From Thermoanaerobaculia bacterium (GTDB lineage: Bacteria > Acidobacteriota > Thermoanaerobaculia > Multivoradales > Multivoraceae), in NCBI GenBank assembly GCA_963666565.1, contig OY762911.1, forward strand, positions 2,560,001 to 2,624,000: a stretch of DNA of 64,000 nt. The letters are read 5' to 3'. This document shows positions 31,801 through 50,825 of the stretch, one piece after another. A model generated the notes under the pieces. That model worked only from the letters and a program-made list of their open reading frames with translations. It did no database searches and had not been told where the DNA came from. The number at the start of each line of letters is the position of its first letter. Position 1 is the first letter of the stretch. Position numbers and translations under genes: made by a program.

Positions 31801-32215
31801 CGCCGGAATCGTCCTTCTCTTCCGACCGCTCGTAGTCGCCCCAGCGGACGGTGACCCGCAGAGCCGTGTCCCCTGCGAGGAAGCTCAGCCCCATCGACGA
31901 CGGGAAGAAGGCCTTCTTCGCCGCCTTGCGGTCCTCGCTCGATTCCTCGGCAAGGCCCGACCGTTCGGGAACCTCGTCGAGGTCGTCGTCGTCTTCGTCG
32001 TCGCGGCTCGTGCTGAGCTCCGGCGGCGTACCGGAGGGAATCAGGAACCCGGTGAGGTACCAGTTCGACGGCGTTTCGTTCGCGGGCAGCCGCTCGCGGG
32101 CGAGTTCGTGACCCGCGCCGGGGCCGACGAGGTCGACCTTGAGGGCGTCGACGATGTCCTGGCGGACCTCGACGGAAGTTGTCGCCGCCGAAAGGACGGC
32201 GTCGGCTTCGGACAC
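28811..32215 (-). CDS. drmA: DISARM helicase DrmA
   Basis: DLVGP..YLTGFL N-terminus, WRAFQLAF, FPTGGGKTEAY, QDELH, STAT, TNMISVGLD, YIQATSRVGR. Confidence 0.92.
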   Translation of the reverse strand: MSEADAVLSAATTSVEVRQDIVDALKVDLVGPGAGHELARERLPANETPSNWYLTGFLIPSGTPPELSTSRDDEDDDDLDEVPERSGLAEESSEDRKAAKKAFFPSSMGLSFLAGDTALRVTVRWGDYERSEEKDDSGGSRRFWLRTPREEVVPVDLGGGEGATVHDVPASGGLQLHIERRLISEIKAIPAGALAVTVFLVNNRQPADAFDDQEATYAFQAEIEVHGDRPFLRRPDLRSAQDDDWDEQVAALHYADAPRYATGHNVSAEWDQEEDGSCRTVRTAWIPSAEVEKTETFEPSGVDLSMDRLGALPGAADAEAALQPLTAAYREWIEDRRADLPGIDADHTETAEELLRRAEFAADRMERGVAALQRDEQALDAFRVANRAIAQALRRRNPDVFTENDPKWRAFQLAFILLNLAPLADPEDPHREFVDLLFFPTGGGKTEAYLGLAAFAIVLRRLRHPEAAGRAGAGVSVVMRYTLRLLTLDQLARAAGLVCALELERADDPERYGEWPFEIGLWVGKAATPNVLGRKGDGDSESARSKTTRYQREPDRNPSPIPLENCPWCGEQFTPDSFSLEPNKDEPRNLRVACAAWECEFSGDRPLPIVAVDEPLYRRLPCFLISTVDKFAALPWEARSGALLGGADRYDDAGFYGAAEPGRGQPLPAPLAGPDLIVQDELHLIAGPLGSMTGLYETAIEALSLRQSGGGGPAKPKIVASTATTRHARDQIQALFGRPVTQIFPPPGLTRRDSFFAQVKPPSETPARLYLGIASPGKNAKVMMRRVLLPLMAAAQKAYRDAGGRDNAANPADPYMTVLAYFNSLRELGGARRIVEEEVQNTLRRYGARRRIGQERRYFRDRSTYVEPLELTSRVSTADVAQARQRLGLPFHRSGRVDCALATNMISVGLDIQRLGLMVVLGQPKTNAEYIQATSRVGRDDARPGLVLTLLNVHKPRDRSYYERFRHYHETFYRAVEAGSVTPFAARALDRGMAGALVALARHAEPSLTPAQGVGRLADARAEIERRLVEAFRDRLHAQPLEEAEREEKLRSVRSRTADLLDSWQHVVDAYREVGTDVKYQRYERRAGQPLLREMLDTEFDSDHHRRFRANRSLRDVEPEVHLYVRDPAGGGER

Positions 32216-32219
32216 GCGG

Positions 32220-32810
32220 CTATGACCCTCGCGAATGGTGAAGCAGCGAGGTCACGTCGCGCCACAGTTTGTCGAAGGATGGCGCTGCGCGTGCGGCGTT
32301 CAGGTCGAAGGCTGCGGTGAATCTGGCCTGGTGGCGCGTCGGCCGGTAGGTCTCGCCGGTAAGTGCGTTTCGGCTCAACCAGCCCTTGGCGTCCTTGATC
32401 GACTCCGGATCTCGATGCAATTCGGCCGCACCCATCGCCCGGCCGGCGATCGACTCGACGGCGGAGATGAACCAGGACTCGTACTCCACCTTCGCCAAGA
32501 CGGTACGGATGGAGCGGTCAGCGCGTGCAGCCTTGGCGCGCTCGTTTAGCTCGACGGCGAGTTCGGCGGGACAGCCGTCCTCGGCATCCAGCAGGATCAG
32601 GATTGCCCCGGCAGCGCCTGCCCGGACGGCCGCAAGCTGGACGTACCGCTCCAACTCTCCGGGCTTCACGACACTCTGGCGCTTCACTCGGATGGGCCGT
32701 GGGACGTGAATCGGAGTAGAGGGTGCCACCGCTTGTGCGATCCGCCGTAGCAGGATCGGCAGGGCCGCGACTTCACCGTGGCCCTCCACGATGGAGGCGA
32801 TCGTGAGCAT
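32220..32810 (-). CDS. DUF4276-family (TOPRIM-like) protein
   Basis: IVEGHGE...LLDAEDGCP...EYESWF...PE..KGWL...SFDKL pattern. Downstream partner of an AAA ATPase. Confidence 0.75.
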   Translation of the reverse strand: MLTIASIVEGHGEVAALPILLRRIAQAVAPSTPIHVPRPIRVKRQSVVKPGELERYVQLAAVRAGAAGAILILLDAEDGCPAELAVELNERAKAARADRSIRTVLAKVEYESWFISAVESIAGRAMGAAELHRDPESIKDAKGWLSRNALTGETYRPTRHQARFTAAFDLNAARAAPSFDKLWRDVTSLLHHSRGS

Positions 32811-32811
32811 C

Positions 32812-34017
32812 TCAGGGCTCAGAGCCGAACAACCGGATTTGGCTCGGCCTGGGGCTCGACCGGACCGGATCCGGATCGAGTTGGTCTATCCGTAACAGCT
32901 CGCCAGCGGTGAACATGTGCTCTTTGAGAGCGGAACGCCCGGCCTCATCCAGGGGGCCGATGCGGCTTTCCCCGTGGTCGGCGCGGACGGCCAGAATCGA
33001 GTCGGCCGAGATCTCCTCGTCGTCCAGAAGGTCGGCGCTGTGGCTGGTCACCAGAATCTGAATGCGCTCCGCGGCGTCGCGCAGGCTGTCGATGAGGATC
33101 CCGGCCGCTGCCGGATGGAGCGCCACTTCCGGTTCCTCGATTCCCACCAGACCCGGCATCGCGTTCCCGTTGCCGGCGCCTTGGAAGACCGCCACGAGGA
33201 TGCCTAGGGCGCGAAGGGTGCCGTCCGACATGTTGTTCGCCTCAAACTTCCAAGGGTGTTTGGCGCCGCGCACGTCTTGGCGGAACTCGAGGGTCTCTCT
33301 CGGACCCGCCATTTTGCGGGCGACGCTGGCGATCCCCGGTACGACGCTGCTCAGGTAGTCCTGGATTCGCCGTTGTGCGTCGGGCGAACGCGTCGAGACG
33401 TTGGCCAGCACGCTCGCGATGTTCCTGCCGTCCCGACTTAGAAGTTGGCCGGGGTCGGGTGGTTGAGGTTGCCGGATCTCCTGGGGGTTCAGGCTGTAGA
33501 AGCCGAGGGTGGACAGCGCGTCGTAGATGGGGCGGAAGGGCTTGTGGCCGGAGACGTTGACCAGGTACAGCCGGTCCGAGGCGGCGACTGGTCCGATCAG
33601 CAGGCTGCTCCTCCTGACCTCGCCCTTCTCCACACGGTAGTGGTCCGGGTCCCCACCATCGCGGGGGACCACCACACAGTCCTCGCGCTGGACCTCGAAG
33701 CCGCCTGGCCTCTTGGCGCCTACCGTGAACGCGTAGTGCCCGTGGGACTCCTCCAGATCGACTTCGACGCGAATGCCGAAGTGCGTCGGGTGACCGCCGG
33801 ACCTTCGGCGCACGTCGTTGACTCCGCCCCGGTCCCGCAGCGCATGGTCGATGGAGTGCCGGAGCGAGTCCCGCACGAAGCAGAGCGCGTCGAGGAAGTT
33901 GCTCTTGCCGGCGCCGTTCGGCCCCACGAGGAAGCAGAGGTTGGCCGGAGAGACGTCGCAAGCGGCGATGCTCTTATAGTTGCGGAGGGCAACGCGAGTC
34001 AACAGGCGGTCCCTCAT
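32812..34017 (-). CDS. ABC/AAA_21-type ATPase
   Basis: NYKSI, GPNGAGKSN (Walker A), MSDGTLR (signature), IEEPE..LHP (Walker B/D-loop), TSHS (H-switch). Confidence 0.9.
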   Translation of the reverse strand: MRDRLLTRVALRNYKSIAACDVSPANLCFLVGPNGAGKSNFLDALCFVRDSLRHSIDHALRDRGGVNDVRRRSGGHPTHFGIRVEVDLEESHGHYAFTVGAKRPGGFEVQREDCVVVPRDGGDPDHYRVEKGEVRRSSLLIGPVAASDRLYLVNVSGHKPFRPIYDALSTLGFYSLNPQEIRQPQPPDPGQLLSRDGRNIASVLANVSTRSPDAQRRIQDYLSSVVPGIASVARKMAGPRETLEFRQDVRGAKHPWKFEANNMSDGTLRALGILVAVFQGAGNGNAMPGLVGIEEPEVALHPAAAGILIDSLRDAAERIQILVTSHSADLLDDEEISADSILAVRADHGESRIGPLDEAGRSALKEHMFTAGELLRIDQLDPDPVRSSPRPSQIRLFGSEP

Positions 34018-34023
34018 GCGGCG

Positions 34024-34029
34024 AGTCTA
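34024..34029 (-). promoter_or_regulatory. -10 box (TAGACT) 6 nt upstream of the ATPase ATG; probable leaderless promoter
   Basis: Minus strand reads TAGACT-cgccgc-ATG with no SD sequence. Confidence 0.5.
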
Positions 34030-34087
34030 GTCGTTGGGCGCGGAGCTGCTCTGGGTTCTCGGCCGTCCGCTCGCGGCCGCCAAGGTC

Positions 34088-34591
34088 CTACGTGGGCCAC
34101 TTCCTGAGCGCCATGTTCAATGCGAGCTGCGCTCGGCGGCTGGCTGCATCCGGCACCTCGAACCCGCAGGACCGGAGGCGCTCCTCGCGGTCCTTGGCCC
34201 GCTGGGCGGCGGCGTCACCCAAGGCGCGGGCCGCCTTGAGCGCTGCAACGACCCGGTCGGGTGCGAGTTGTTCTTGGGAGAGCATCTCGATGAGAGAGAC
34301 TTGTTCGGGCTTCGGCGGGTGACGGACGAAGCGGGCGTTGAGGGGAGCCGTGTCGGATACCGATGCGAGCTGGAGAATGCCGGCGAGGCGATGCAACCGC
34401 GCGACGGCGGCTGCGGAGGGCTCTGCGCCTTGGCGCCAGGAGTCCACCGTTGCCCGCGTCACTCTCAGGATCCGGGCGATTTGGGACTTGTTCAGGGACA
34501 GGGCAGCGGCCAGGTCCCTCACCTGCTCTGTAACCGGAGGCGTCTTAGCGTCTTTGCAGGGCGCGCCGACTGTGACGATTGCCTTGTCCAT
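34088..34591 (-). CDS. HTH-domain (XRE-like/antitoxin-like) protein
   Basis: LSLNKSQIARILRVTRATVDSWRQG is a Cro/XRE-type HTH. C-terminus not recognised. Confidence 0.6.
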   Translation of the reverse strand: MDKAIVTVGAPCKDAKTPPVTEQVRDLAAALSLNKSQIARILRVTRATVDSWRQGAEPSAAAVARLHRLAGILQLASVSDTAPLNARFVRHPPKPEQVSLIEMLSQEQLAPDRVVAALKAARALGDAAAQRAKDREERLRSCGFEVPDAASRRAQLALNMALRKWPT

Positions 34592-34764
34592 GTGGATGTG
34601 GCGGCCGACGATACCGCCTCGTGAAGCTGGCTCGCGCCCTGCTGGTGGTCCTCATCTTCGCGATCCCGGTCTGCTGGGCGGGTGCAGCGGGGCGGTCTGG
34701 CCGCAGGTGGGAGCCTAGCTGCTACCTTCGCTCGGTGTGTAGCTTCCGCTGTTGCGGTCTCGAC

Positions 34765-35421
34765 TTGGCCGCTGATCCCGTCGTGGAAGAGGTTCGACGG
34801 CTTCTTCCAGAGGTGACAGTGAGTGGCGGTTCCTTTGCGCGTTCGCTGCCTCCTCTGGCTCGGACTGGCCGAGAGAATCGAGTCGAGGAACTGCGACGCG
34901 TGAAGAGAGTCGCCACCGCCTGTTGTCTCGTCGACCTCCTAAGGGGTGCCGGACTACCGGCCGTTGAACCCACTCGACGGGTCTCTGGGGAGAGGGTGTG
35001 GCCTTCGGGCTTCATGGGCAGTGTCAGCCACAAAGGCACCAAGGTCGTAGCCGTGCTCGCGCCATCGCGTGCCTTCGATGGCGTAGGAGTGGACATCGAG
35101 GCTGCCGAGCCAGGGGATCTGATGCGCGTTAGATCCCTCCGAACGGCACCCGATCTTCCGCCGGGTCTGCACCCCCGTCTTGCAGTAGCGGTCCTCTTCT
35201 CCGTCAAGGAGGCCGCCTTCAAAGCCCTTTTCCCGTTGGTGAGGGAGAGGATGACGTTCGAGGACGTCGTGGTGCGATGGTCGGCTGGCGGCGTGGACGG
35301 GGTGCTCCATGGAACTTCGGTCTTCCGTCGGGTTTCGATCGAGGTCCGCTGCTCGACGGGAGTTCCAGACTGGGTCGTCTCTTGTGCCCTAGCACAGAGG
35401 GGCATAGTAGGCTGTGTTTGA
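34765..35421 (+). CDS. 4'-phosphopantetheinyl transferase (EntD/Sfp-like)
   Basis: WPSGFMGSVSH, GVGVDIE and LFSVKEAAFKALFP are EntD-type PPTase motifs. Start uncertain (34621, 34765 or 34783). Confidence 0.85.
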   Translation: MAADPVVEEVRRLLPEVTVSGGSFARSLPPLARTGRENRVEELRRVKRVATACCLVDLLRGAGLPAVEPTRRVSGERVWPSGFMGSVSHKGTKVVAVLAPSRAFDGVGVDIEAAEPGDLMRVRSLRTAPDLPPGLHPRLAVAVLFSVKEAAFKALFPLVRERMTFEDVVVRWSAGGVDGVLHGTSVFRRVSIEVRCSTGVPDWVVSCALAQRGIVGCV

Positions 35422-35445
35422 AATTCGGACGCCATCGTGTAGACT
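35418..35445 (+). promoter_or_regulatory. Candidate sigma70 promoter upstream of the ACP-like gene
   Basis: TTGAAA (35418-35423), 16-nt spacer, TAGACT (35440-35445). Confidence 0.45.
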
Positions 35446-35481
35446 GTGCCGAAGTCGAACGGACGATGTGGAGCGAGAGCT

Positions 35482-35787
35482 ATGGCCCAGGACCATCGCA
35501 AGGCTGAGCTAGAGCGGCGAGTACGGGAGGCGTTGGCGGAGAAACTCCGGGACTGGGACGAGCTTGTTCGGGATGGCGTTACGGGTGAGGTGGACCATGA
35601 ACACGCCGACGCTTGGGGGTCGATGCCCGTGATCGACTCAAAGGTCGTGGTCGAGCTCGTCCCGGTCTTCGAGGACGTTCTCGGTTGCGACTTCGACCTC
35701 AAGCTCATACGTGCCGGCGGTTACAACAGCGAAGATGAACTGGTCGCGGAACTGATCCCTGCGGTTCTTGAGGCAGCCGCACGGTGA
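35482..35787 (+). CDS. Stand-alone acyl/peptidyl carrier-like protein
   Basis: Small acidic protein. IDSKVVVELVPVFEDVLGCDF aligns with ACP 'xDSLDxVELVMxxEExFG'. Adjacent to the PPTase. Confidence 0.7.
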   Translation: MAQDHRKAELERRVREALAEKLRDWDELVRDGVTGEVDHEHADAWGSMPVIDSKVVVELVPVFEDVLGCDFDLKLIRAGGYNSEDELVAELIPAVLEAAAR

Positions 35788-35814: not shown

Positions 35815-36162
35815 ATGACTGAAGAACGGTCGAGTAGCGACAGTCTCGGGATCAGGCTCCGGGACGCGCGCAAGTACTGTGGCTTCTCCCAGGAAGAGGT
35901 GGCGCGGCACTTGAACGTATCCCGATCGGCCGTGTCTCTGATGGAGAGCGGCTCTCGGAGCGTCAACGCCATGGAGCTAGGGCGACTGGCGCGGCTCTAT
36001 CAGCGGAGCATGGAGAGCCTTACCGGCACCGTGTCAAGCGAGTCGGAAGCGGAGTCGGTCGGTTTCTTGGCCCGGGCAACGGCAGATCTCTCCAAACGGG
36101 ACCGGCAGGAAGTGCTTCGATTCGCAGAGTTCCTCCGATCGAGGAGGAGTGCCAGTGACTAG
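35815..36162 (+). CDS. XRE-family HTH transcriptional regulator
   Basis: RLRDARKYCGFSQEEVARHLNVSRSAVSLMESGSR. Strong AAGGAG RBS. Confidence 0.92.
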   Translation: MTEERSSSDSLGIRLRDARKYCGFSQEEVARHLNVSRSAVSLMESGSRSVNAMELGRLARLYQRSMESLTGTVSSESEAESVGFLARATADLSKRDRQEVLRFAEFLRSRRSASD

Positions 36163-37144
36163 GCGAGAAGGGATTCTACAGGCGGTGGCGGAAGCCTCAA
36201 AGCTGCTCGGCGAGGTCCCAGTCGGTGCCCGAACGAGCTTCGACATCGTGCGCGCTGTCGTGTCACGCCGCATCCCTCTCTTCTTTCGGCCGCTCGATGG
36301 GTTGCTCGGTGCCAACATTCGCTCAGACGATGGCGCCGCCGGCATCCTCGTGACAACTCGGCGCAACCTCGCCATACAGCGGTTCACGCTCGCTCACGAA
36401 CTCGGTCACATCCTCCTCGACCATCAGCCCCATCTCGACACGATGACGACGGTGGATGTTCAGGGTCCCTATTCCACCCCCGATGCCGACCTGCACGAGG
36501 TCGCGGCGAACACGTTCGCCTCCGAACTTCTGGGGGCTAGAGACCTCGTCCTTCGGTCGGCCCGTCGCCACGGTTGGACGAGGAAGGCGCTTCGACAAAG
36601 ACGCAACGTGTATCAACTCGCGCTTCGTCTTGGGCTCAGCTACAAGGCCACATGCTGGGCTCTGCGCACGGCTTCTGTACTCACGCACGAAGAGGCGCGT
36701 TGTCTCCAGAAGTTGCCGGTCAAGCAGATCAAGCAGTCGTTCGATCCTCTCCGCCTGCAGACCAACGCGCGAACGGATGTGTGGCTACTCACCTCGGCGG
36801 ATCGAGACACGTGTCTAGAAGCTGGACCGGAAGACCTGTTCGCGGTTGAACTGTCCGACCACGTGGCGGCCGGCTATCTGTGGAGGCTCAAGGGAACGGG
36901 CGGCGCGGCGAAGGTGGTTGGGGAGGCCCCTCCGAGTCTGAGCCTCGACTATGGCGGCAGGAGCACGAGAACGGTGTATCTCCGATTCGACGCCCCGGGC
37001 ATGCACGAACTGTCGTTTGAACTCGCACGGCCTTGGACCGGCGCTACCTTGGATCAGCTAACCGTCAACATACATGCTCTCGGCTCGGAGCAGGAAGGCC
37101 TGCCACGGCGCCAGAAGCGAGAGGCGCTGGCAAGTGCGGCATGA
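36149..37144 (+). CDS. ImmA/IrrE-family metallopeptidase with C-terminal chagasin-like (I42) domain
   Basis: QRFTLAHELGH...EVAANTFASELL. C-terminal VELSDHVAAGYLW...GG...F..ARPW. Confidence 0.85.
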   Translation: MPVTRREGILQAVAEASKLLGEVPVGARTSFDIVRAVVSRRIPLFFRPLDGLLGANIRSDDGAAGILVTTRRNLAIQRFTLAHELGHILLDHQPHLDTMTTVDVQGPYSTPDADLHEVAANTFASELLGARDLVLRSARRHGWTRKALRQRRNVYQLALRLGLSYKATCWALRTASVLTHEEARCLQKLPVKQIKQSFDPLRLQTNARTDVWLLTSADRDTCLEAGPEDLFAVELSDHVAAGYLWRLKGTGGAAKVVGEAPPSLSLDYGGRSTRTVYLRFDAPGMHELSFELARPWTGATLDQLTVNIHALGSEQEGLPRRQKREALASAA

Positions 37145-37770
37145 ACGTGGCTATCGAGCTGGACCTGCGGCCCGCGTTAGGTCCTGTGCGGGACCAACGC
37201 GAACTCCCGACGTGCTTGGCTTTTGCAGTGACGGCTGCACACGAACACGCCCTGAGATCAGGTGTGGAGCTCTCGCCCCGGCAGCTCCATCTTCAAGCCG
37301 CTGGAACGCAGATAGGGAAGGGTGTGTCGATTGAGTCCATTCGCGACGCTCTACTGGAACCGGGGCAGGCGCTCGAGGCCGACTGTCCCTACGATCTGGT
37401 GGAATCGGAGCCAGACTGGCTGCCTGTTCCTGGCTTGCCACTCTTTCGACGAGACAGCGAGATGTTGAGCCCGACACCGCCCGACGTGATGTCGGCGCTT
37501 GAATCAGAACATGTCCCGGTCCTGGGCATCAGCCTGCCTGCTGCGTTCCTGAGCCCTTCTGCACCGTGGCTAGTAGAGCCGGGAGACGTAGTGGGTGGGC
37601 TACATGCGGTTGCGGGTGTAGGGCTCGGCCTTCACAGCAGCGGGCGTTGCGTCCTGATCAGGAACAGTTGGGGCGCAGGCTGGGGTGACGCCGGCCATGT
37701 TTGGCTGTCCGAGCGCTTCGTCGCTCGGCATCTTCATGAGCTGATGGTGCTGTCGGACGCGCCAGGATGA
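37141..37770 (+). CDS. Papain-like (C1) cysteine peptidase, cytoplasmic, no propeptide
   Basis: DLR..LGPVRDQRELPTCLAFA (Q19, C25), GLHAVAGVG, IRNSWGAGWGDAG. ATGA coupling to the upstream gene. Confidence 0.88.
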   Translation: MNVAIELDLRPALGPVRDQRELPTCLAFAVTAAHEHALRSGVELSPRQLHLQAAGTQIGKGVSIESIRDALLEPGQALEADCPYDLVESEPDWLPVPGLPLFRRDSEMLSPTPPDVMSALESEHVPVLGISLPAAFLSPSAPWLVEPGDVVGGLHAVAGVGLGLHSSGRCVLIRNSWGAGWGDAGHVWLSERFVARHLHELMVLSDAPG

Positions 37771-38546
37771 CGGTGGAAGTGATCCATGCGGCTGGCCGGG
37801 TGGAGGCGTGGGTGAAGGCGGCGCGGCGACTACTCGAGAGCCAACGACTGCTGAATCTCGTACTCGACATCGCTTCCACTTACGTTCCCGGTACGGAAGC
37901 GCTGGAGCGCCGTATCGACAGCTACATGGCGTCACAAGGGAAGGAGTCCTTGCACAGCGTGGCGGAGACGATCTTCCCTTGCTCGCTGTATTGGCGGGAG
38001 GGTAGTCGGGGAGTGTTGGAACTGTACCCGAAGAACATCTACCCGGTTCTAAGGAGGAGAGAGCCCCGTCGGTGGGGTAACTATGCAGGACGTCTGCTTC
38101 GGCGGGAGACCAGCGCGGGCGACACGATCAACCCTCTGGATCAGATGCTCCGGAAGATGCGTTCGGAAGTCACCGGTTCGCGCACGAAGCGCGCGTGCTA
38201 CGAAATGGGCATCTGTCCTGCGGAGTACGAGCTGCCGCTCTACAGCGCCGCGAGAGACCGACGGCAGAGAATGGGTTTTCCGTGTTTGTCTCATCTGTCG
38301 TTCAAGGTATGGGGCAACGCCGTTCACCTGACGGCCCTCTACCGCAGTCACGACTATGGCGTGAAGGTGCCGGGCAACCTCCTCGGCCTCTCGCGGTTAC
38401 TGTTGTTTGTGGCGAACGAGACGGGGCAGCGGCCTGGTGGATTGGTCGTTCACTCGTCCTACGCCTACATTGACGGGCCGAAGACACCTCTGCGGGGTGC
38501 CTTGGATGAAATCGAGCGTTTACAGGGAGGAGAGTCGCCGTCATGA
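37767..38546 (+). CDS. Thymidylate synthase-like protein (divergent)
   Basis: GNYAGRL, FPCLSHLSF (catalytic Cys), YRSHDYGVKVPGN (equivalent to ThyA RSxD...N). Confidence 0.75.
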   Translation: MTVEVIHAAGRVEAWVKAARRLLESQRLLNLVLDIASTYVPGTEALERRIDSYMASQGKESLHSVAETIFPCSLYWREGSRGVLELYPKNIYPVLRRREPRRWGNYAGRLLRRETSAGDTINPLDQMLRKMRSEVTGSRTKRACYEMGICPAEYELPLYSAARDRRQRMGFPCLSHLSFKVWGNAVHLTALYRSHDYGVKVPGNLLGLSRLLLFVANETGQRPGGLVVHSSYAYIDGPKTPLRGALDEIERLQGGESPS

Positions 38547-39643
38547 GTGATTGGTTTCTGGAGTTCGAAGAGGCGGCCGCTCGGACGGACCAGTTCAGTC
38601 AGCGGCCGAATCACGCTGCGCTTCTGGCGGCGGGGCTGCTCGGCGAGGTCGGGAGCGTGCTGGCCGAAATCAAGAAGGAAGTTCGGGAGGCCGCTGCCTA
38701 TCCGGGGCATCGAAGGCGATTGGTCGAGGAGTTGGGCGACGTCCTGTGGTACTTCACTCGGCTTGCGCGCGTGTCGGAGCCGGATCTGCTTGGGAGGATC
38801 GCTTCTCGTCTGGAGGAGGGCGGGGATGGCGACCGGGACGCGGTGACCGCTGCTCTGGCACTGGGCCGCGATGTAGGAGGGCTCTGGGCGAGGGTAGAGC
38901 ACGGCAGACGGGAAGGGATTCGCAGGGGTCTCCTTGATGTGGCTGTGCGCATAGGTAGCGTGGCCAGGCTCGCCGATGTAGGGTGGCCAGAGGCCGCCCG
39001 GTGGAATAGGGCGAAGATCGAGAGCAGGTGGCCCAGCTCACGTAAGCACGCGCCGCTGTTCGATAGTGACTTTCCCGTGTACGAGCAGTTGCCGCGGCAG
39101 CTTGAGGTGGAGTTCATTCCGATTGAGCGGGGGAAGACCGAGAGCGTACTGCTGCGGTGTCGGGGCCTCAATATGGGTGATCGGCTGACGGACAACGCGA
39201 AGGACCCGGACTCATACCGGTATCACGATGTGATTCACCTATCGTATGCGGCATTCTTGGGCTGGTCGCCTGTGATCCGGAGTCTGCTGAAGTGCAAACG
39301 GAAGAGCAATCCGGACGTCGACGAAGTGGAGGACGGTGCTAGAGCGGCGGTGGCCGAGGAGGCGGTGTCTTTCGCGGTGTTTCGGCGGGCGAAGGAGATG
39401 AGTCTCTTCAAGGGCGTCGAACGTGTGGACTTCGACCTCCTGAAGGCAGTTCGACAGCTCGTCGTGGGTTTGGAGGTGGCGGCGCTTCCGTACTGGCAGT
39501 GGGAGGAGGCGATCCTGGAGGGGTATCGTGTGTTCCGGCGGCTGACGCGGAACCGGGGCGGGGCCGTGGAGATCGACCTGAATGAGCGAAGAGTGGTGTA
39601 CCGGCGGACGGCCTCTTCGAGTGGCGGCGCTACAGGCAGTTGA
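38543..39643 (+). CDS. MazG-like NTP pyrophosphohydrolase with MazG_C domain
   Basis: GLLGEVGSVLAEIKK..EELGDVLWY (MazG). C-terminal DSYRYHDVIH and DEVEDGARA motifs. Confidence 0.85.
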   Translation: MSDWFLEFEEAAARTDQFSQRPNHAALLAAGLLGEVGSVLAEIKKEVREAAAYPGHRRRLVEELGDVLWYFTRLARVSEPDLLGRIASRLEEGGDGDRDAVTAALALGRDVGGLWARVEHGRREGIRRGLLDVAVRIGSVARLADVGWPEAARWNRAKIESRWPSSRKHAPLFDSDFPVYEQLPRQLEVEFIPIERGKTESVLLRCRGLNMGDRLTDNAKDPDSYRYHDVIHLSYAAFLGWSPVIRSLLKCKRKSNPDVDEVEDGARAAVAEEAVSFAVFRRAKEMSLFKGVERVDFDLLKAVRQLVVGLEVAALPYWQWEEAILEGYRVFRRLTRNRGGAVEIDLNERRVVYRRTASSSGGATGS

Positions 39644-39682: not shown

Positions 39683-42600
39683 CTAAAGAAGTCGGCGCTC
39701 CTCGTCGGCGGCTCGCCGTGCGTTGAGTTCGAGCAGGCGGACGAGGACCTCGTCGCGGACTTCGTCGGGCCAGCGGTAGCGGTAGGGCTTCTTCCTGGCG
39801 CCCCAGGTCTCTTCGTCGATCTCGTAGTCGAGGAGGAACTCGCAGTCGGTGGGGATGTCGGTCCAGCCGTAGGCGTCGAGGACGGCGCGGTCCATGTTGG
39901 TGTGTAGGTCGCGGAGTTCACGGATGGCGGGGCTGGTCTCGGAGGGGTCGTGGAAGCGGTTGTAGGTCGCGGTTAGGCCCTCGTCGTTCTCGACCATTTT
40001 GGTGGCGCGCCGGTCGTAGTAGGCCCTGCCGGCGGCCTCAAGGTCGGGGCTGGTTTCCCAGTTCTCGGGGAAGGGGAAGGTCTCGAAGCAGTCTGAGGGG
40101 GTGTAGCGGAGGTCGTCTTTCATGGAGGAGCCCAAGAACCGGACCCAGAGTTCGTGGGGACGGGACTGGAGGGCGGTGAAGGCGGCGTAAGTGGGGAGAG
40201 GGAAGACGATGAAGCTCTCAGCGTAGACCATGCCGTTGGGAAGGTACGCGAAGGTGGCGTACTGGCCGACGCGCGAGACGGCGAGGATACGGTCGAGGTC
40301 GGCGATGGCGGCGTAGAGTCCGGGGCGCTTCTCGGCGTAGTGCCACCACCGCTCGCGAAGCGCCTTGCGGTTCTGGGAGTCGCGGTCCGGCTTCACCCGC
40401 TCCTCCACGACCGCCAACAACTCGGGCCAATCCGCCGCCACGGGATCTGGGTAGTCGTCGGGCACTACGCCGGATTGCCGCCATTCGCGCCGTTCCGTTT
40501 CGTCTGCTTGGTGCCACGACCGATCGAGTCGACTGCGCCGTAGCGGATAGTCCTTGAAGTTGATGATGAAGCGGTGATGAGTGTGAGCGGGGCTGGCATT
40601 GAGCTCGGCGCCGCCGATGTACGGGAAGATCGCCTCCCGGTTCTTGGGGTTGTCGGCGATCAGACGCTTCATCTCGGCAAGCGGCGTCGCCACGCCCTTC
40701 TTGTCCGTGTCGTCAAACGTGAAGCCCATTCCGAGCACGATGCTTCCTTGGAAGCTCTTGCCTGCGTTCTCGGTCAGACGCGCCGGGTCCTCGTGGCCGC
40801 CGCGGTGGAACAGGAAGGCGGTGATGGTCGGCGCTGGCTTGGCGTCCAGCAGTCTCGGGCCAGACCAGGCGCCGCGGTGGACGTGGACGACGCTGACAAT
40901 GACCGCCGCCAGTCCGGGCCACTGGACCCGCCGTCGCGCTCGGTAGATCTCGCCGCCGCTCTGGCAGATGTGGCGCAGGCCGGTGGCGCGCGTGTCGCCC
41001 TGGGCGATCGTGTTCGTGGCGATCAGGCCGAGGGCGCCACGGGCGCGCAGCAGGTCGAACGAGCGCCGGAAGAAGTGGGCGACCAGGTCGGCGTTGCCGT
41101 GGCTCCGCTCGTGGAGCTGCTGCAGCCAGTCCTTGTAGCCGGGGACGTTCGCCGCGGCGATCGTGTTCTTGCCGGCAAACGGCGGGTTGCCGACGATCCC
41201 GTCGAAGCCTGGGTTCTCGCGTTCTCCGGGCAGCAGCACTTCCGGGAACTCGATCTCCCAGTGGAACGGGGCCAGCGGTGGGCTCGCCTTGCGGAGTTCT
41301 TCGAGCCAACCGACGTAGGCGTGGGTGCCCGGAAGGCCGGTCTCGTCTTCTGTAGGCGACTGCAGGGCTTGGGCAAACTCTCGCCGCAGCGCTTCCCGCT
41401 CCTTCGGCTTCTTCCCTTCAAAGAAAGCGGCCAGCGCCAGGTCGCCGTGTCTCTTCACCCGCGCCACTTCGCTGTCGGCCTCGCGGAGCCGGTCCCGCAA
41501 CTCACGATCCGGCGTCTCGTCGCCGGCGTCCTGGATCTCCCGCCGCAGGCGTAGCGCCTTCTCGACCTGCTCGCGGATCCAGGTCGTTTCGATGCCTGCC
41601 TGGAACCTCTTCTCCCCGCCCTTCCAGTGGAACGCCCGGATCTGCTCCAGGGTCAGGCCGACAAGCGAATCGCCTTCGCGGAGCGCGTGGTCGAGGAAGG
41701 TCAGCGGGTGGTTCCTGGCCAGGGTGACGAGCCAGAGGGACAGCTTCGCCAGATCGACGGCAACGGGATTCCGGTCGACGCCGTAGAGGCAGTTCCGCGC
41801 GACCAAACGGCGGGCATGGACGATCTCGTCCTCGTCGGGCGGGATCGCGGGCACGGCGTCGTGGGCGTACCAGGAGTCCACGAGGACGTCGGCGAGTTGG
41901 CGGCAGGCTTCGACCAGGAAGGCGCCGGAGCCCATGGCGGGGTCGCAGACCTTGAGGTCGAGGATCTCGGCTGGCCGTGGCACCGCGGTTTCCGCCGCCT
42001 CCCGGCGCAGCCGGTCGAGGATCGGTTCCAAGGTGTCGCGGACGATCGGTTCGGTGAGTTCCCGCGGCGTGTAGTGCGATCCTGAGCGCCGGCGCTCTTC
42101 GCTCGGCTGGAGGATGAGATCGCCTGTGCGGACGAGGTCGGGCGTCGCGTCGCGGTCGATGGCCTTGTCCAGAGCGGCATGGAGTTCGTCGAGCGTGGCC
42201 GCGTCGCGGAGCGCCTTTGCCGCGGCGCCGGTCAGGTTGCGGTCGGTCTGCTCCCGGAGCCAGCGGACGCGGCGGCCCGGCGCCTCGGTCAGCAGCGCTT
42301 CCAGGTTCACCGTTGCCGGCGCCCCGTGCTTTTTCGCCGCCTTGATCGCGGCCGAGCGGCCTTCCGCTCGTTCGAGGCGGAAGCCCATCATGGTCTCGTA
42401 TACGGCACCGATGTGCTCTACGTCCAGCGCCCGGTAGGACAGGCGCTCCCCGTCGAGCACTAGGAGCTTGGCGAGCGCCCGGTGGATCGTGCCGTCGGAG
42501 ACGAGGGGCGCGGCGACGCGCTCATGGTTCTGTGCCACCGCGCCCAGCGGCCGGCCCTCTAGGAACGTGTAGCGGTCCGGGTCGAAGAGGACGCCGTGCC

Positions 42601-43708
42601 GGGGCGGCAGACGCAGCTTTGCACCCTTCGCGCCGTCGTGGATCATGCGGAACAGCGCGAGCAACTGGGCCCAGGCGCCGAAGCGCTGGTCCATCGTGTC
42701 TGGGTGGAGCGCGGCGTCGGCCCGGAGCCGGTCGTGGAGACCGGCCAGGGAGTAGTGGCGAACGAACGTCTCGTCCTCCGAGAGCAGATCGCGCTCTTCC
42801 GCGAAGAGCAGGAAGACGAGCCTGAGAACGACCGTGAGCAGGCCCCGGTAGATGCCGCCGGGGTCTTCGCGCAACTGGTCGTTCAGCAGGTCGCCGCGCG
42901 AGGCGTCGTGGGCGGCCTGGAATCCCCGCAGCAGCTCGTAGAGCGCGTGCAGCACCTGCACCGCGAGCTTCTCGCTGACCTCGTTCTGGTACTTCCGGCT
43001 GTCGGCGAGCAGGGCGGCGAGCCGCTGGTTCCTCGGCAGGGCCAGCAGCCGGCGCTCGTTCAGCAGCAGCCGGAGCGCGGTGCAGATGGGGCGCCCGGCC
43101 GGAAGCAGCATGTCGGCGACGCGGAAGTCCATCCAGCCGGAGCTCTCGCCCCGCGGGGCCGAGACGAGTCGAAGGGAACGGCCGTTGAAGAGCAGGCCGG
43201 CGGGGACGTTCTTCGCCCGGAGCAGGCGCTCCAGCCGGCTGTGGGGCGAGGCCTCGAGCCGGCCGGCGTCGGCCGCGACCCGATCGAAGTCCTGGCCGGT
43301 CTCAAGGGTTCGCACCAGCAGTTGCCAAGCCGAGCCGCCCTCTTCCGGTTCGCGCTCGCGGACCCCGAAGTCCGGGCGCAGGGTTTCACCGTAGTCCGGT
43401 AATTGAAGGCTCAGTTCGTCCGGCAGCGAGGCGCCGAGGCCGCCGGCGTAGCCCCTGGGCGAGAACTTCCAGTCGAGCACGGAGCGGGCGAACTTCTCGA
43501 AGTCGGGCAGGAAGGGCCGCGGCGCCTCGCCTTCTCCGAACCGCCGCTCTTCGACGGCTGCCTGCAGGCGCTGCTGGCCCTCCCGGTCGCTTCGCTGCAG
43601 CACGACGCCGGCCTTGTCCAGCGCCGGGGCCGAGACGACAAGCCCGGTCGGCTGAACGAAGCCGAGCCACTCCAGGTGCGCGAGCGTGTTCGCGTTCGGT
43701 CGGGCCAT
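39683..43708 (-). CDS. drmMI: DISARM adenine DNA methyltransferase DrmMI (type IIG/Eco57I-like)
   Basis: SGSHYTP, DPAMGSGAFL (motif I), YGVD, FHWEIEFPEV, GNPPF (motif IV). Lies directly downstream of drmD. Confidence 0.88.
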   Translation of the reverse strand: MARPNANTLAHLEWLGFVQPTGLVVSAPALDKAGVVLQRSDREGQQRLQAAVEERRFGEGEAPRPFLPDFEKFARSVLDWKFSPRGYAGGLGASLPDELSLQLPDYGETLRPDFGVREREPEEGGSAWQLLVRTLETGQDFDRVAADAGRLEASPHSRLERLLRAKNVPAGLLFNGRSLRLVSAPRGESSGWMDFRVADMLLPAGRPICTALRLLLNERRLLALPRNQRLAALLADSRKYQNEVSEKLAVQVLHALYELLRGFQAAHDASRGDLLNDQLREDPGGIYRGLLTVVLRLVFLLFAEERDLLSEDETFVRHYSLAGLHDRLRADAALHPDTMDQRFGAWAQLLALFRMIHDGAKGAKLRLPPRHGVLFDPDRYTFLEGRPLGAVAQNHERVAAPLVSDGTIHRALAKLLVLDGERLSYRALDVEHIGAVYETMMGFRLERAEGRSAAIKAAKKHGAPATVNLEALLTEAPGRRVRWLREQTDRNLTGAAAKALRDAATLDELHAALDKAIDRDATPDLVRTGDLILQPSEERRRSGSHYTPRELTEPIVRDTLEPILDRLRREAAETAVPRPAEILDLKVCDPAMGSGAFLVEACRQLADVLVDSWYAHDAVPAIPPDEDEIVHARRLVARNCLYGVDRNPVAVDLAKLSLWLVTLARNHPLTFLDHALREGDSLVGLTLEQIRAFHWKGGEKRFQAGIETTWIREQVEKALRLRREIQDAGDETPDRELRDRLREADSEVARVKRHGDLALAAFFEGKKPKEREALRREFAQALQSPTEDETGLPGTHAYVGWLEELRKASPPLAPFHWEIEFPEVLLPGERENPGFDGIVGNPPFAGKNTIAAANVPGYKDWLQQLHERSHGNADLVAHFFRRSFDLLRARGALGLIATNTIAQGDTRATGLRHICQSGGEIYRARRRVQWPGLAAVIVSVVHVHRGAWSGPRLLDAKPAPTITAFLFHRGGHEDPARLTENAGKSFQGSIVLGMGFTFDDTDKKGVATPLAEMKRLIADNPKNREAIFPYIGGAELNASPAHTHHRFIINFKDYPLRRSRLDRSWHQADETERREWRQSGVVPDDYPDPVAADWPELLAVVEERVKPDRDSQNRKALRERWWHYAEKRPGLYAAIADLDRILAVSRVGQYATFAYLPNGMVYAESFIVFPLPTYAAFTALQSRPHELWVRFLGSSMKDDLRYTPSDCFETFPFPENWETSPDLEAAGRAYYDRRATKMVENDEGLTATYNRFHDPSETSPAIRELRDLHTNMDRAVLDAYGWTDIPTDCEFLLDYEIDEETWGARKKPYRYRWPDEVRDEVLVRLLELNARRAADEERRLL

Positions 43709-43749
43709 CGGCTACCGCAAAGTACGCAGGGGAATCGAGCCAGGCGAGG

Positions 43750-46700
43750 TCAGTTCGTCTCGGGCCACAGGTAGACGATGCCGAGCGGCTCGACCGGCGG
43801 CACGGCGCGGACTTCGTAGAAGTCGCGTACGCGGCGGGGCTCGCGGTCCAGATCGCGGTCGAACTGGTCCAGGCGGCGGCGCCAGGAGTTCATGTCGGCC
43901 AGGAGTTGCCGCTCTTCGGCCTGGCTGAAGGCCAGGGTTCGCTGCTTCAGCGCCGATTGGCGTCGTTCCAGTTCGCCGCCGACGTGGCCGCGCTGGTGTT
44001 CGAGCGTCTCGCGGAGCTCCCGGCTCTCGCGTTCGCCGCGCTCGCGCAGACGCTCGGTCGCCGACTTCTCCATCGCGCGGGCGCGGGTCTCCAACTGCGG
44101 CCGGAGTTCGTCCACGTCGCGCGGCGCGGAGCCGAGCAGTCGGCGGACGACGACGTCGTTCACCGGGCGACCGCCGGAACGCGCCAGCGACTGTTCGAGC
44201 AGGTCGAGGGCACGGATTTCCGCGTCGCGCGCGTAGGCGGCGAGCGGGGCGTCGCGCCTCCCCGGTTCGACCCAGCGGGCCGCTGCCGTCACGATCTCCT
44301 CGTGCAGCCGTTCGGCGCGCCGGCCGTAGAGGGTCAGCCGGCCGAGCAGGACGACGCGGGGAATCGAATCCGCCGACTGGGCAAGACAGGCGCGCGAGAG
44401 GTCGTGATGCACGAAGCCCTGGGAGCGGAAGCGGGCCAGCAGACGCTGGGCGACGCGCTGTTCGAGATGAAGGTGAACCGTGTCGTCGGTGAGGATGCCG
44501 GGATCCTGGAACACGACCGGGCGCGGCGGTTCTTCCTTCCGCCATTCGGTGAGCTTCTGGTTGCGGCGTCGTGGTCGGCGCAAGGAGTCGAGGGTGCCTG
44601 CCCAGCTCGGGTCGGCGTGGGTCTGACCGTCCAGAGCGGGGAAGGTCCAAACCTTGCCGTTGTCTTCGCTCCGCGTTTGCCGCAACGGCGCCGCGCCGGC
44701 GATTTCGAGCGAACACGACAGAGCGTCGCGGAAGGCGTTCTCCTCGAACTGAACCCACTGGCGGGACCGCTGCAGGAGGTCCCGGCAACGCGCGATCTGG
44801 CCCTTCAGGTCGTCCCGGCGTTGGCGCGCGGCCTCGAGTTCTTCGTTGACCAGGCGCCGGCGCTCGGCGTCGATGTCGGCCCGCTCGATCTCGCGGGCCA
44901 GTCGGCCGGCGTCACGGTGGCGGATGCCGCTCTTCGTCAGGCGGCGTTCCACCGCGTCGTCTATGACCTGGGACAGGCTGCCGAGCTCGGTCTTGATGGT
45001 CTCCGTCTTCCTGACGAGAACCTGGAGTACGCGGTCCTCGGCGCGCTGGGGCAGGACGAAGTAGTGACAGCGGACCTCGGGCGCCTGCTGGAGCTTGCGG
45101 TCGATACGGCCGTTTCGCTGCTCGATGCGGCCGGGATTCCAGGGCAAGTCGAAGTGGAACAGGTCCGTGCAGTGAGCCTGGAAGTTCAGTCCCTCGCGGG
45201 CGGCGTCGGTCGCCAGGAGGATGCGAAGCGGCTCGTCCTTCGGGTCGGTGTTGAACCGGCGCTGGATCTCGCGCCGCCGGGGTCCGCGAGTGAGTCCGTC
45301 GATCGTCACGATCCGTTCCTCCGCGCGGTCGGTGGAGGCGATCGCGTCGTCGAGCATCGCGCGGAGGTAGCGCTTCGTGCCCTCCCGGTTCTCGGTAAAG
45401 ACGAGGAGGCGGCGGTCGTTCCAGCGCGGCGGCGGGGAGCCGGCGGGGAGCGCTTGGCCCAGGGGCGGCAGGCCGGGGCAGAGGTGTTCGCGGATCCAGT
45501 CGACGAGTTCGCGGGTCTTCGCGTCGGGCCTGCCGCGAGCTTGCTCGGCGATTCGCTGCATCCGATCGAGCAGGTCGTTCTCGCGCTGGAGGGGGCTGCC
45601 CTCAGCCCGTTCGGCTCCGTGTGCGGACTCGGCCGAGGCGTTCAGGTCGCGGATCTGGGCCTCCTCCTCTCGGTCGGCTTCTTCGCCCGTAAAGGCCGCG
45701 CGGTCCTCGTCGCCTTCTTCCCCGGCCAGCCACGAGCCCGAGACGAAACGCTCCGTCCGGTCCGAGCCGCCGCTCCGCCCGGCGGCGTCCGCTGCCTTCC
45801 GGCGCCGGCGCTCGAGCGTGCCGCGGTGCGTCCTCAGGCTGCGCGCGAACGCCTCGATGGAGGACAGCAGCCGCTGCTGAAGGCCGACGACGAGCAGACC
45901 GGAGGCGGCGCGGGCCGACTGCGGCGCCGCCTGGAACCGCTCCTCGCGGGCCTCGCGGTACTCGTCGAGCAGGCGGGAGAGCAGGAGTTCGGGGGCGTCC
46001 TCGGGGAGATCGTCGATCTTCACGGGCACGACGCGGCGTCTCGGAAAGCCGCCCTGGACGTCGCGGATGTCCTCCTTCAGGCGGCGCACCATCACGGCTT
46101 CGAGCGACCGCTTGCGCACCTTGACCCCGCGGGTGAAGCGGTTCGGGTCCAGCAGTTCGAGCAGCGTGGAGAAGCTGTTCGAGTGGCCGTTGTGGGGCGT
46201 CGCCGAGAGGAAGAGCCGGTGCTCGAAGCGGCCGCTGAGGTCGCGAACGGCGCGGGTGAACTTCGACTCGATGCCGTAGCGGCCGCCGCTGGCAGGGGCG
46301 GCATGGTGGGCCTCGTCGAGGATCAGCAGGCTCCCGGAGAGCACCGGTCCCAACCACTCGCGCATCGGGTCGGCGTAGGTGGCGTCGCGCAGCAGGCTGT
46401 GCGAGACGAGGAAGCGGCTGTGAGTCCGCCACGGATTGACGCCGAAGCCCCGCTCGCGCCGCATGCGCGTGAACCAGGCGCGGTCGAGGATCTCGAACAG
46501 CAGCCCGAACCGTTCCTCCATCTCGGCTTGCCACTGTTCGAGGACGGAACTCGGCGCGGAGACGACGATCGTCTTGACCTTCTTGCGGAGCAGCAGCTCG
46601 CGGGCGATGAGGCCTGCCTCGATCGTCTTGCCCAGGCCGGTGTCGTCCGCAATGAAGAGGTTGACGCGGGGCATCCGCAGCGCCTTGCGCAGCGGCTCCA

Positions 46701-48263: not shown

Positions 48264-48324
48264 GCCGGACTCCTCTTGCGGTTTGCGGCGCGGTTCGTTC
48301 GGGTGGGGCGGCGGCCGGATGGAC

Positions 48325-49518: not shown

Positions 49519-49635
49519 GATGGGCGCGACTCTATCGCGGGCGCGACCTTCGTCGGCGAGCCCGGAGGTTCGGAGTAAGCTTGGCCGCCGCGGCATTCCG
49601 GCGGGCCACGACATGGGAAGGACGGCGCGAGCGAT

Positions 49636-50811: not shown

Positions 50812-50825
50812 CGAACGCGCGGCGC

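Follow-up and report, generated by a model that had tools for sequence, protein, structure and literature searches.

A thymidylate-synthase-fold enzyme and a MazG-MazG_C protein in an HTH/ImmA-headed cassette within a DISARM locus: a plausible nucleotide-pool or base-modification role in phage conflict

What does a divergent relative of thymidylate synthase (TS) do beside a MazG-type protein, in the midst of a DISARM defence locus? The question is raised by a stretch of 64,000 nucleotides (nt) from a Thermoanaerobaculia bacterium (assembly GCA_963666565.1, contig OY762911.1, positions 2,560,001 to 2,624,000), called ‘the window’ below. A nucleotide-pool or base-modification role in phage conflict is plausible for the two genes and the cassette to which they belong, on evidence by association. 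The particular form of that role favoured here, which our analysis puts slightly on the better side of even, is an inducible cassette that would turn a pyrimidine deoxynucleoside triphosphate (dNTP) into a C5-modified uracil nucleotide, or deplete it, to block phage. The two genes are as follows (lengths in amino acids, aa).

37767–38546, plus strand: divergent TS-fold enzyme of 259 aa, start ATG, assigned from motifs, profile alignment and an AlphaFold model
38543–39643, plus strand: MazG domain (residues 1–164) fused to a MazG_C domain (169–355), 366 aa, start ATG, assigned from Pfam and a model

The TS-like protein carries the motifs P172-C173, R193-S194-H195-D196 and N204, as read from its translation. 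The spacing from C173 to R193 is 20 and that from D196 to N204 is 8, the same as in the genome’s own 264-aa canonical ThyA (C146, R166, D169, N177). When the TS-like family was aligned with this ThyA by hhalign (Prob 83.5 %, E 8.4e-6, 107 columns), the core residues fell into register over TS-like residues 114–235. A first-pass annotation of this DNA had claimed ThyA-like spacing of PC and R-S-x-D-x7-N, and the direct reading and the hhalign register both bear this out. It had also noted that the region matching ThyA GDTHLY reads HSSYAY with the His substituted; HSSYAY is indeed present at 229–234, at GDAHLY of the genome’s ThyA, and places Y232 on H207.

Likeness to TS at the level of sequence is marginal. 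The protein scores 22.7 bits against Pfam PF00303, under the cut-off of 24.3, 41 bits against TIGR03283 (cut-off 174.55) and 10–41 bits against the NCBIfam TS equivalogs (cut-offs 174–427); the best solved chain found by sequence has E 0.02, and PHROGs returns a weak, generic TS match (1.2e-5). Despite this, the predicted fold is clearly that of TS. The AlphaFold model, made with a 60-row alignment, has a predicted local distance difference test value (pLDDT) of 90.0 and a predicted template modelling score of 0.89. Foldseek matched it to 396 PDB chains at E ≤ 0.001, and all among the matches listed are TS or TS homologues; structural comparison with VIA gave Z values of 14–18. The nearest solved structure is that of AfhB, a phage hydroxylase of deoxycytidine monophosphate (dCMP) (9iqu, Z 17.8, root-mean-square deviation (rmsd) 3.2, 196 aligned), followed by AfhB in complex with flavin adenine dinucleotide (9iqc, Z 17.1) and by the cytidine monophosphate (CMP) hydroxymethylase MilA (Z 16.8), with ThyA chains at Z 14–15. 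Sequence identity to the nearest structures is 10–17 %.

Among 60 diverse TS-like sequences, 24 alignment columns are invariant, namely W15, F70, P71, Y75, G104, Y106, R109, P172-K180 (PCLSHLSFK), L188, Y192, R193, G203, N204, G207, L208 and L211; S194 is present in 50 of the 60. The family thus shares with canonical ThyA the fold, the equivalents of C146, R166, S167 and N177, and their spacing. However, the ThyA D169 position (D196) is variable (Y24/D19/H7/F5/W4/R1), H147 is replaced by an invariant Leu (L174) and F176 by an invariant Gly (G203), the H207 and Y209 positions vary, and the L143 position (G170) is mostly Gly (G46/N8/P3 and others). Structural alignments stop near residue ~226 of the 264 of ThyA, leaving the TS-like protein without a counterpart of the last ~38 residues, and an insert of ~14 residues at 150–170 has low pLDDT. 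D169, F176, H147 and the C-terminal tail of ThyA are folate-site and closing elements. Relative to the ThyA family as defined by PF00303, then, the fold, the Cys, the Arg-Ser and the Asn are present, while the score stays below threshold and the folate-site and closing elements are missing.

According to the available passages of PMC13326640, Asn at the N177 position selects deoxyuridine monophosphate (dUMP) over dCMP, and the bulky Leu143 of ThyA keeps water out, hydroxymethylases having an acidic residue there. The TS-like family has the uracil-specifying Asn that the first-pass annotation had pointed to (N204, invariant in the 60 sequences) but neither Leu nor an acid at the L143 position. 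AfhB and the other 5hodCMP synthases, MilA and the T4-type hydroxymethylases have the TS fold, the Cys nucleophile and the Arg-Ser phosphate motif in common with the TS-like protein. Their signature (T4 gp42, MilA, AfhB type), an acid at L143 and Asp at N177, is absent from it: it has Gly instead of the acidic residue and Asn instead of Asp, for which uracil rather than cytosine would be the expected base. Unlike the phage enzymes of the TS superfamily, the gene is cellular or plasmid-borne. Judged from its residues, the enzyme would act at C5 of a uracil nucleotide with Cys173 as the putative nucleophile, and a normal folate-dependent methylase activity is unlikely.

A canonical ThyA is encoded ~0.8 Mb away in the same genome (412.9 bits over the full profile length), and the TS-like gene is accordingly not the sole or essential source of thymidine monophosphate (dTMP). 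Its presence among relatives is patchy: it occurs in 2 of 61 related genomes (the source genome and 1 of the 36 others of the genus) and in none of the 24 from other genera of the order. The family itself is large and well conserved, and its existence is no product of chance: a word-indexed search found, among its candidates, at least 501 homologues at E ≤ 0.001, and an exhaustive profile search of 1.84 billion cluster representatives found 193 at E ≤ 1e-30, 702 at 1e-10 and 1340 at 1e-3. Since only these 1340 matched, and since the family profile meets solved thymidylate synthases only at E ≥ 0.14, the bulk of ThyA was probably not reached. The claim that this is not the housekeeping ThyA therefore stands, given the genome’s own ThyA, the distinct family and the patchy distribution, and a housekeeping identity is ruled out. 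The TS fold and core residues would also suit an ordinary or decaying second thymidylate synthase lying beside a MazG housecleaning enzyme. Against this speak the canonical ThyA, the conservation of a separate family with 193 clusters at E ≤ 1e-30, the fixed, non-metabolic neighbourhood described below, the missing folate-closing C-terminus and the lack of conservation at D169, H207 and Y209; this explanation is very improbable.

The TS-like gene is found on 21 of 72,556 plasmids, 12 of them conjugative, and it is labelled hypothetical in all 5 plasmid records inspected. None of 50,697 phage records matched the protein (tblastn, E ≤ 1e-5), and a phage origin has been set aside for now on this account. 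Loci come from Acidobacteriota, Pseudomonadota, Myxococcota, Planctomycetota, Verrucomicrobiota, Actinomycetota, Chloroflexota and other phyla, and also from a haloarchaeal plasmid, so that the cassette crosses the boundary between bacteria and archaea. The best explanation is that it is mobile and horizontally spread, and transcriptionally gated.

The partner protein has EELGD at 62–66 and DSYRYHDVIH at 223–232; the one intact EELGD and the C-terminal DxYRxHDxxH domain of the first-pass annotation were both located. Pfam MazG matches over 28–79 (8e-6; 26.5 bits, cut-off 22), and MazG_C (PF18722) over 169–355 (4.2e-76; 255.2 bits, cut-off 29.7; profile positions 2–188 of 190). The acidic metal-binding motif of MazG (EExxD) is represented by E35, E62, E63 and D66, each at least 90 % conserved. 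In MazG_C 25 columns are invariant, with Asp, His, Arg and Glu prominent among them. With its helical core and EExxD the N-terminal part belongs to the all-alpha MazG nucleoside triphosphate (NTP) pyrophosphatases, its family profile matching small MazG proteins and DCTPP1 in PDB at 2e-6 to 2e-4, and the C-terminal part belongs by sequence to MazG_C. A degenerate second MazG repeat had also been proposed. The second half of the domain is present, but in the model (pLDDT 93.0) residues 1–164 form one seven-helix domain and not two recognizable repeats.

MazG_C is called a ‘predicted nucleotide kinase’ in the passages available from PMC13092281. In an Atlas search it matched MazG_C clusters only (scores up to 0.89), and comparison with the helical domain of the kinase of 5-hydroxymethyldeoxyuridine (5-hmdU) gave no similarity (Prob 0.15 %).

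The two genes were described in the first-pass annotation as a TS-like enzyme coupled to MazG. They are adjacent in the window, where their open reading frames (ORFs) share 4 nt. They do not form a two-gene unit, though, but the 3′ end of a seven-gene cassette whose other features are listed here.

34579–35421, plus strand: Sfp-type 4′-phosphopantetheinyl transferase (PPTase); the listed ORF begins at TTG, the conserved part at ~34720
35418–35445, plus strand: sigma-70-like promoter match TTGAAA-16-TAGACT just 5′ of the carrier-like gene, a consensus match only
35446–35787, plus strand: small acidic protein, probably acyl-carrier-like; likely start ATG 35482 (101 aa)
35815–36162, plus strand: XRE-type helix-turn-helix (HTH) regulator, CapH-like (Pfam, PADLOC)
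36149–37144, plus strand: ImmA/IrrE (M78) metallopeptidase with a C-terminal chagasin-type (I42) inhibitor domain (Pfam, PADLOC)
37138–37770, plus strand: cytoplasmic papain-like C1 cysteine peptidase; its ATG at 37138 overlaps the ImmA stop by 7 nt

All seven genes, in the order PPTase, carrier-like, HTH, ImmA with chagasin, C1 peptidase, TS-like and MazG-MazG_C, point in one direction on the plus strand, and start-to-stop overlaps link the five from HTH through MazG-MazG_C. The cassette lies in a stretch of lower G+C: the window has ~71 %, falling to 0.63–0.67 at 32–40 kb between flanks of ~0.70–0.77. A scan for sigma-70-like promoters found 2 sites where 0.6 were expected from shuffles, and GGAG stands 8–11 nt before the carrier-like ATG at 35482. 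No operator-like palindrome was found upstream, one 10-nt palindrome lying within the carrier-like gene, and no terminator-like site was found 3′ of MazG-MazG_C. A minus-strand ORF at 34722–35708 (328 aa, no Pfam match) was discarded as spurious, since it is in the PPTase frame on the plus strand that conservation is seen. A divergent gap of ~700 bp (34018–34719) separates the PPTase gene from the neighbouring HEC-01A gene, and a minus-strand ORF in this region (34088–34591, 167 aa) has weak HTH matches (E 0.0019 and 0.0093); it may be a regulator or spurious.

Relatives of the cassette were sought by a pattern scan with one genome per species, which gave 121 loci with a TS-like relative. Of these 80 were kept, and the counts that follow refer to them. 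Homologues were identified with phmmer on mechanically called ORFs, and further families by all-against-all clustering. Near the TS-like gene, an ImmA homologue occurs in 69 loci, a C1 peptidase in 72 and MazG-MazG_C in 65, and related loci keep a fixed order of ImmA, C1 and TS-like. The carrier-like small protein is upstream in 68 and the PPTase in 30, and a second PPTase cluster occurs in 6 more. MazG-MazG_C is often not adjacent to the TS-like gene: where there is a sole homologue, 23 loci have it co-directional and immediately 3′ and 25 have it convergent, on the other strand, the remaining loci being mixed or truncated.

In a proteobacterial form (the Pseudomonas locus L035, 6775–7446 and 8615–9040, both minus strand, and ~30 other loci) MazG-MazG_C belongs to a convergent operon of its own, together with a conserved protein of 223 aa for which neither Pfam nor PHROG gives a match; a DUF4031 protein (7.2e-26; phrog_4887, 1.6e-18) and a divergent second HTH gene precede it. 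On the Haloarcula marina plasmid NZ_CP100410.1 (L088, 63291–78067) the PPTase, small protein, HTH, ImmA, C1 and TS-like genes (the last at 37 % identity) adjoin tmk, a ‘nucleotide kinase’ gene and a restriction endonuclease. On a plasmid of Streptomyces cathayae, genes for an ‘acyl carrier protein’, an HTH protein, ImmA and the TS-like protein are present but none for C1, and an NTP pyrophosphohydrolase and a ‘nucleotide kinase’ are encoded on the flanks.

Single loci show further variants. A DDE transposase gene directly follows the TS-like gene, at the MazG position, in L012 (6967–8256, minus strand), and a TIR-domain protein is encoded beside the cassette in L021 (1776–2834, plus strand). 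Fused forms P0193 and P0238 combine M78, TS and MazG pieces and may be artefacts of gene calling or deletion; in the fused form P0185 the C-terminal extension has no similarity to MazG and no Pfam match.

The head of the operon suggests how expression may be controlled. The HTH protein matches Pfam HTH_31 (1.5e-13), HTH_3 (9.7e-11) and PADLOC capH (6.4e-9), and the ImmA protein matches Peptidase_M78 (1.6e-11), Inhibitor_I42 (3.2e-8) and PADLOC capP (1.1e-15). H83, E84 and H87 of the HEXXH motif are invariant in 41 ImmA sequences. An HTH protein and an HEXXH-bearing ImmA-like protease are thus encoded together upstream of the genes that they would regulate, as in the CapH/CapP switch of CBASS, which has the same HTH and M78 pair at the operon head. 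The cassette protease differs from CapP in bearing a chagasin-type inhibitor domain and in being paired with a C1 peptidase; CapP of CBASS is not known to have such a domain.

Within the chagasin domain G242, W245, R294 and W296 are conserved in 41 sequences, and its conserved loop motifs are AGYLW, a Gly loop and RPW, which resemble the three loop motifs of chagasin. The neighbouring peptidase matches Pfam Peptidase_C1 (1.6e-7), with Q20, C26, H156, N176 and W178 invariant in 42 sequences. A predicted complex of the peptidase with ImmA residues 205–331 scored 0.86, 0.86 and 0.85 in three runs, the best of three controls scoring 0.00; 58 of 80 solved complexes reach that mark, as do 2 of 110 mismatched pairs. 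Contacts agree between runs to at least 96 %, partner pLDDT is at least 73, and Q20, C26, H156 and W178 contact loops 237–244, 264–272 and 294–297. As in known pairs of chagasin (I42) and papain-family peptidases, the conserved loops enter the active-site cleft in the model; in contrast to them, the inhibitor is fused to a metallopeptidase, stands beside the gene of its cytoplasmic target and lies in an operon of nucleotide enzymes. The model supports the view that the chagasin domain plugs the active site of the adjacent C1 peptidase as a second layer of control. Since chagasin–protease complexes have already been solved, it shows likeness and is not proof that this pair binds.

The 5′ end of the cassette raises a different possibility. 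The PPTase matches Pfam ACPS (1.4e-6) and 4PPT_N (3.4e-6), with GVDIE and FSVKEAAFK intact. The small protein has no match to PP-binding, and its sole Pfam match, DUF5805, scores 28.4 bits under a cut-off of 28.5. Its family keeps the Ser of an (I/V)DS motif in 69 of 69 aligned sequences, with a conserved GGY motif. When the family was compared by hhalign with two PP-binding proteins that the genome also encodes, this Ser aligned with the Ser of their DSL motifs (Prob 48 % and 49 %, E 1.9e-4 and 1.8e-4). The gene at the same position on the Streptomyces plasmid is the one annotated as ‘acyl carrier protein’, a label of the Prokaryotic Genome Annotation Pipeline, and hhalign gives that protein Prob 12 % against the small-protein family. 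Because the invariant Ser is placed, with modest confidence, on the phosphopantetheine Ser, a PPTase gene is adjacent and this label exists, the small acidic protein is probably acyl-carrier-like.

A PPTase with a carrier-like protein is typical of secondary metabolism, and the structures closest to the TS-like model include that of MilA, which serves an antibiotic pathway as CMP hydroxymethylase (Z as above). The cassette could on these grounds direct carrier-dependent biosynthesis of a nucleoside or nucleotide metabolite, antibiotic or signal, with the TS-fold enzyme acting like MilA or BcmA and the carrier supplying a group. This is quite unlikely, however, as adenylation, condensation, ketosynthase and tailoring genes were not seen in the cassette, which is small, headed by HTH and ImmA, set inside DISARM, and carried on conjugative plasmids in bacteria and in one archaeon. 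A more radical idea, to which only a low probability is given, pairs a folate-free TS-fold enzyme with its most constant neighbour, the phosphopantetheinylated carrier: a carrier-borne group would be transferred to uracil C5, or the pantetheine thiol would capture the C5 intermediate. A pyrimidine nucleotide linked to protein or bearing an unusual substituent would then arise on demand, and the chagasin-gated C1 peptidase would release or transfer this product.

Further genes accompany the TS-like gene in subsets of the loci, and all these variable partners are pyrimidine-nucleotide enzymes. A dCTP-deaminase-like gene occurs in 11 loci, thymidylate-kinase-like and deoxynucleoside-kinase-like (dNK-like) genes occur in others, and a protein with a 5-hmdU DNA kinase domain adjoins TS-like and MazG-MazG_C in 5. 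A second TS is encoded in 7 loci (L024, L028, L030, L033, L040, L041 and L049), often with a dCTP-deaminase-like gene and a P-loop deoxynucleoside monophosphate (dNMP) kinase. Three residues ahead of its catalytic Cys, at the L143 position, stands Asp, and the N177 position holds Asn; this is the pattern expected of dUMP hydroxymethylases, and Pfam values are 2.7e-19 to 9.2e-22 in the two members scanned. Taken together, the recurrent partners make up a coherent path that runs from suppliers of dUMP (MazG/dUTPase-like, dCTP-deaminase-like) through a C5 modifier to one or more kinases (tmk, dNK-like, the 5-hmdU kinase family and, as predicted, MazG_C). Their logic would be that of the phage route to modified dNTPs, here encoded on cellular or plasmid DNA, under the control of an HTH/ImmA gate and within a system of restriction-like kind.

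The partners can also be divided otherwise. The constant core consists of the carrier-like, HTH, ImmA with chagasin, C1 and TS-like proteins, and it is the nucleotide enzymes that vary. The C1 catalytic residues are invariant, the inhibitor complex is backed by a model, and the second TS of the 7 loci could provide the chemistry. This arrangement would suit an abortive sensor–effector system in which the TS fold senses a pyrimidine nucleotide made by the phage, through binding or covalent trapping, C1 released from chagasin is the effector and cleaves proteins of host or phage, and the nucleotide enzymes are accessory. However, the path from dUMP source through C5 modifier to kinases is coherent, and the TS-like gene stands without ImmA or C1 in some loci (with MazG only in 5, alone in 3) and without C1 on the S. 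cathayae plasmid. Likewise, the strict invariance of PCLSHLSFK, R193 and N204 suits catalysis as well as binding. A sensor–effector system is on balance unlikely.

The 5-hmdU DNA kinase domain bears on another alternative as well, namely that a modified thymidine or uridine derivative is placed in host or plasmid DNA, in the manner of phages, against nucleases or as a self mark for DISARM. Such a kinase is a post-replicative hypermodification enzyme, adjoining TS-like and MazG-MazG_C in the 5 loci mentioned, and the ‘nucleotide kinase’ genes of the two plasmids are similar. The cassette of the window, by contrast, has no DNA kinase or transferase gene, the TS-like family is absent from the phage records searched, and a gate of HTH and ImmA points to expression upon induction and not to a constitutive one; modification of self DNA is accordingly considered improbable.

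The cassette lies within a class 1 DISARM locus, whose genes flank it on both sides.

39683–47088, minus strand: drmMI (39683–43708) and drmD (43750–47088), convergent with the cassette (PADLOC)
26952–34017, minus strand: drmB (26952–28811), drmA (28811–32215), HEC-01B (32220–32810) and HEC-01A (32812–34017) (PADLOC)

PADLOC gives 1321.8 bits for DrmMI, 1017.1 for DrmD, 894.2 for DrmA and 266.3 for DrmB. The cassette and HEC-01A/B sit between drmMI and drmA, with drmD and drmB outermost; an ORF after drmB where drmC might be expected (26224–26892, minus strand) has no match to DrmC or any other PADLOC model. In a tblastn search with the DISARM proteins of the window, DISARM genes flank 9 of the 80 cassette loci. 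DrmMI is downstream in L001, L002, L007 and L016, with fragments in L006 and L010, and DrmA is upstream in L004, L009, L010 and L014. This recurrence makes a functional link between cassette and DISARM conceivable; the first-pass annotation had suggested, as one possibility, that the pair may counter phages whose modified DNA escapes DISARM.

Beside the cassette, the HEC-01A/HEC-01B pair (227.1 bits for HEC-01B, 528.7 for HEC-01A) encodes an ABC-type ATPase and a DUF4276/TOPRIM-like protein. Among the related loci, L001 and L016 likewise have a HEC-01A homologue adjoining the cassette, and L001 alone has one of HEC-01B. In the parts available of the source paper (Payne et al., bioRxiv 10.1101/2024.01.29.577857), HEC-01 gave no protection in the assays. 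Past drmD, acyl-CoA-dehydrogenase-like genes follow at 47211–53070 on the minus strand; an ORF of 1581 aa beyond drmD has three ACAD domains in its C-terminal ~350 residues and may be an over-long call owing to high G+C.

Published work gives the cassette a setting. In the available passages of PMC13092281 (DefensePredictor), a TS-domain system is validated as defence in E. coli, MazG/MazG-C systems are predicted as defence, with earlier predictions credited to Burroughs et al. 2015, and TS, MazG, MazG-C, dNMP kinase and 5-hmdU kinase domains are named as defence-associated. ImmA with chagasin, C1 peptidase, PPTase and carrier protein are not mentioned in those passages, and the families may overlap. 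Payne et al., in the parts available, describe defence genes embedded in DISARM, BREX or Hma (‘guilt by embedding’), and a position between drmMI and drmA alongside HEC-01 fits that description; the words ‘Thymidylate’, ‘MazG’ and ‘peptidase’ have 0 occurrences each in their text. The literature searched holds no account of a cassette joining TS-like, MazG_C, ImmA with chagasin, C1 and carrier proteins, and the figures or supplements of PMC13092281 may show related ones. The cassette is related to nucleotide-modifying candidate defence systems already in print, with unusual added parts.

It is the coherent nucleotide path, together with the HTH/ImmA gate and the DISARM setting, that favours inducible rewriting or depletion of the pyrimidine pool. 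Under this reading the HTH repressor and the ImmA/IrrE protease would act as a CapH/CapP-like switch, with damage or infection as the cue that de-represses the operon. The MazG domain would convert a pyrimidine dNTP, at best guess deoxyuridine triphosphate (dUTP), to the monophosphate. In the TS-fold enzyme Cys173 would attack C6 of the uracil nucleotide and a group would be added at C5. The product is probably not dTMP because the C-terminus is missing, D169, H207 and Y209 vary, H147 is Leu, F176 is Gly and Gly stands at Leu143. MazG_C would then re-phosphorylate this product, and the outcome would be a non-canonical dNTP by which replicating DNA is poisoned or marked, or else a loss of dUTP or thymidine triphosphate (dTTP).

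Several points weigh against this reading. A nucleotide-pool model leaves unexplained why it is the carrier-like protein and the peptidase that accompany the TS-like gene most tightly. The second TS of the 7 loci is more canonical and hydroxymethylase-like, so the TS-like enzyme may not be the one that makes a modified nucleotide. Dimeric dUTPases are nearest in shape to the MazG N-domain (Z 12.3 with rmsd 3.2 over 150 aligned, 11.7 and 8.4; next 7.7), but these values are within the chance range for helical bundles; the VIA rows mostly span 12–154 and so barely cover the C-domain. The kinase label of MazG_C is a prediction from the literature, and no solved relative of the domain was found, Foldseek of the whole model giving no PDB match at E ≤ 0.001. 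The chagasin–C1 complex score may come from likeness to solved chagasin–protease complexes.

The defence context is subject to similar reservations. The 9 DISARM-flanked loci are all among the 16 closest relatives, and their DrmMI copies are 56–77 % identical, so that the embedding may be one inherited arrangement. The TS-like, MazG, C1, PPTase and carrier-like proteins match no PADLOC v2 model. In a defence-island test, the nearest ORF of at least 150 aa was taken on each side of the cassette, whose borders were set by noisy clustering. Some sides were empty, leaving 137 ORFs from the 80 loci, and no PADLOC family was matched by more than 2 of these at E ≤ 1e-10, so that the family-wide signal is weak. 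Single matches included SIR2, ThsB, AbiEii, HEC-01A and capP.

It is proven that bacteria can defend themselves by manipulating the nucleotide pool, through dCTP deaminase, dGTPase or viperins, and phages build modified DNA using TS homologues. Here a phage-type toolkit of NTP pyrophosphatase, TS-fold C5 enzyme and putative kinase is apparently used on the cellular side. Three of its accompaniments were not found together in the literature searched: a carrier with its PPTase, an ImmA switch with a fused protease–inhibitor pair, and repeated placement within DISARM. Should the coupling of TS fold and carrier prove true, it would be chemistry new to the TS superfamily, and bacteria and archaea would share an immune effector pathway of a new kind. 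More generally, the cassette could bring to light a novel modified nucleotide, show a TS-superfamily enzyme following a new cofactor logic, and illustrate how defence systems are layered.

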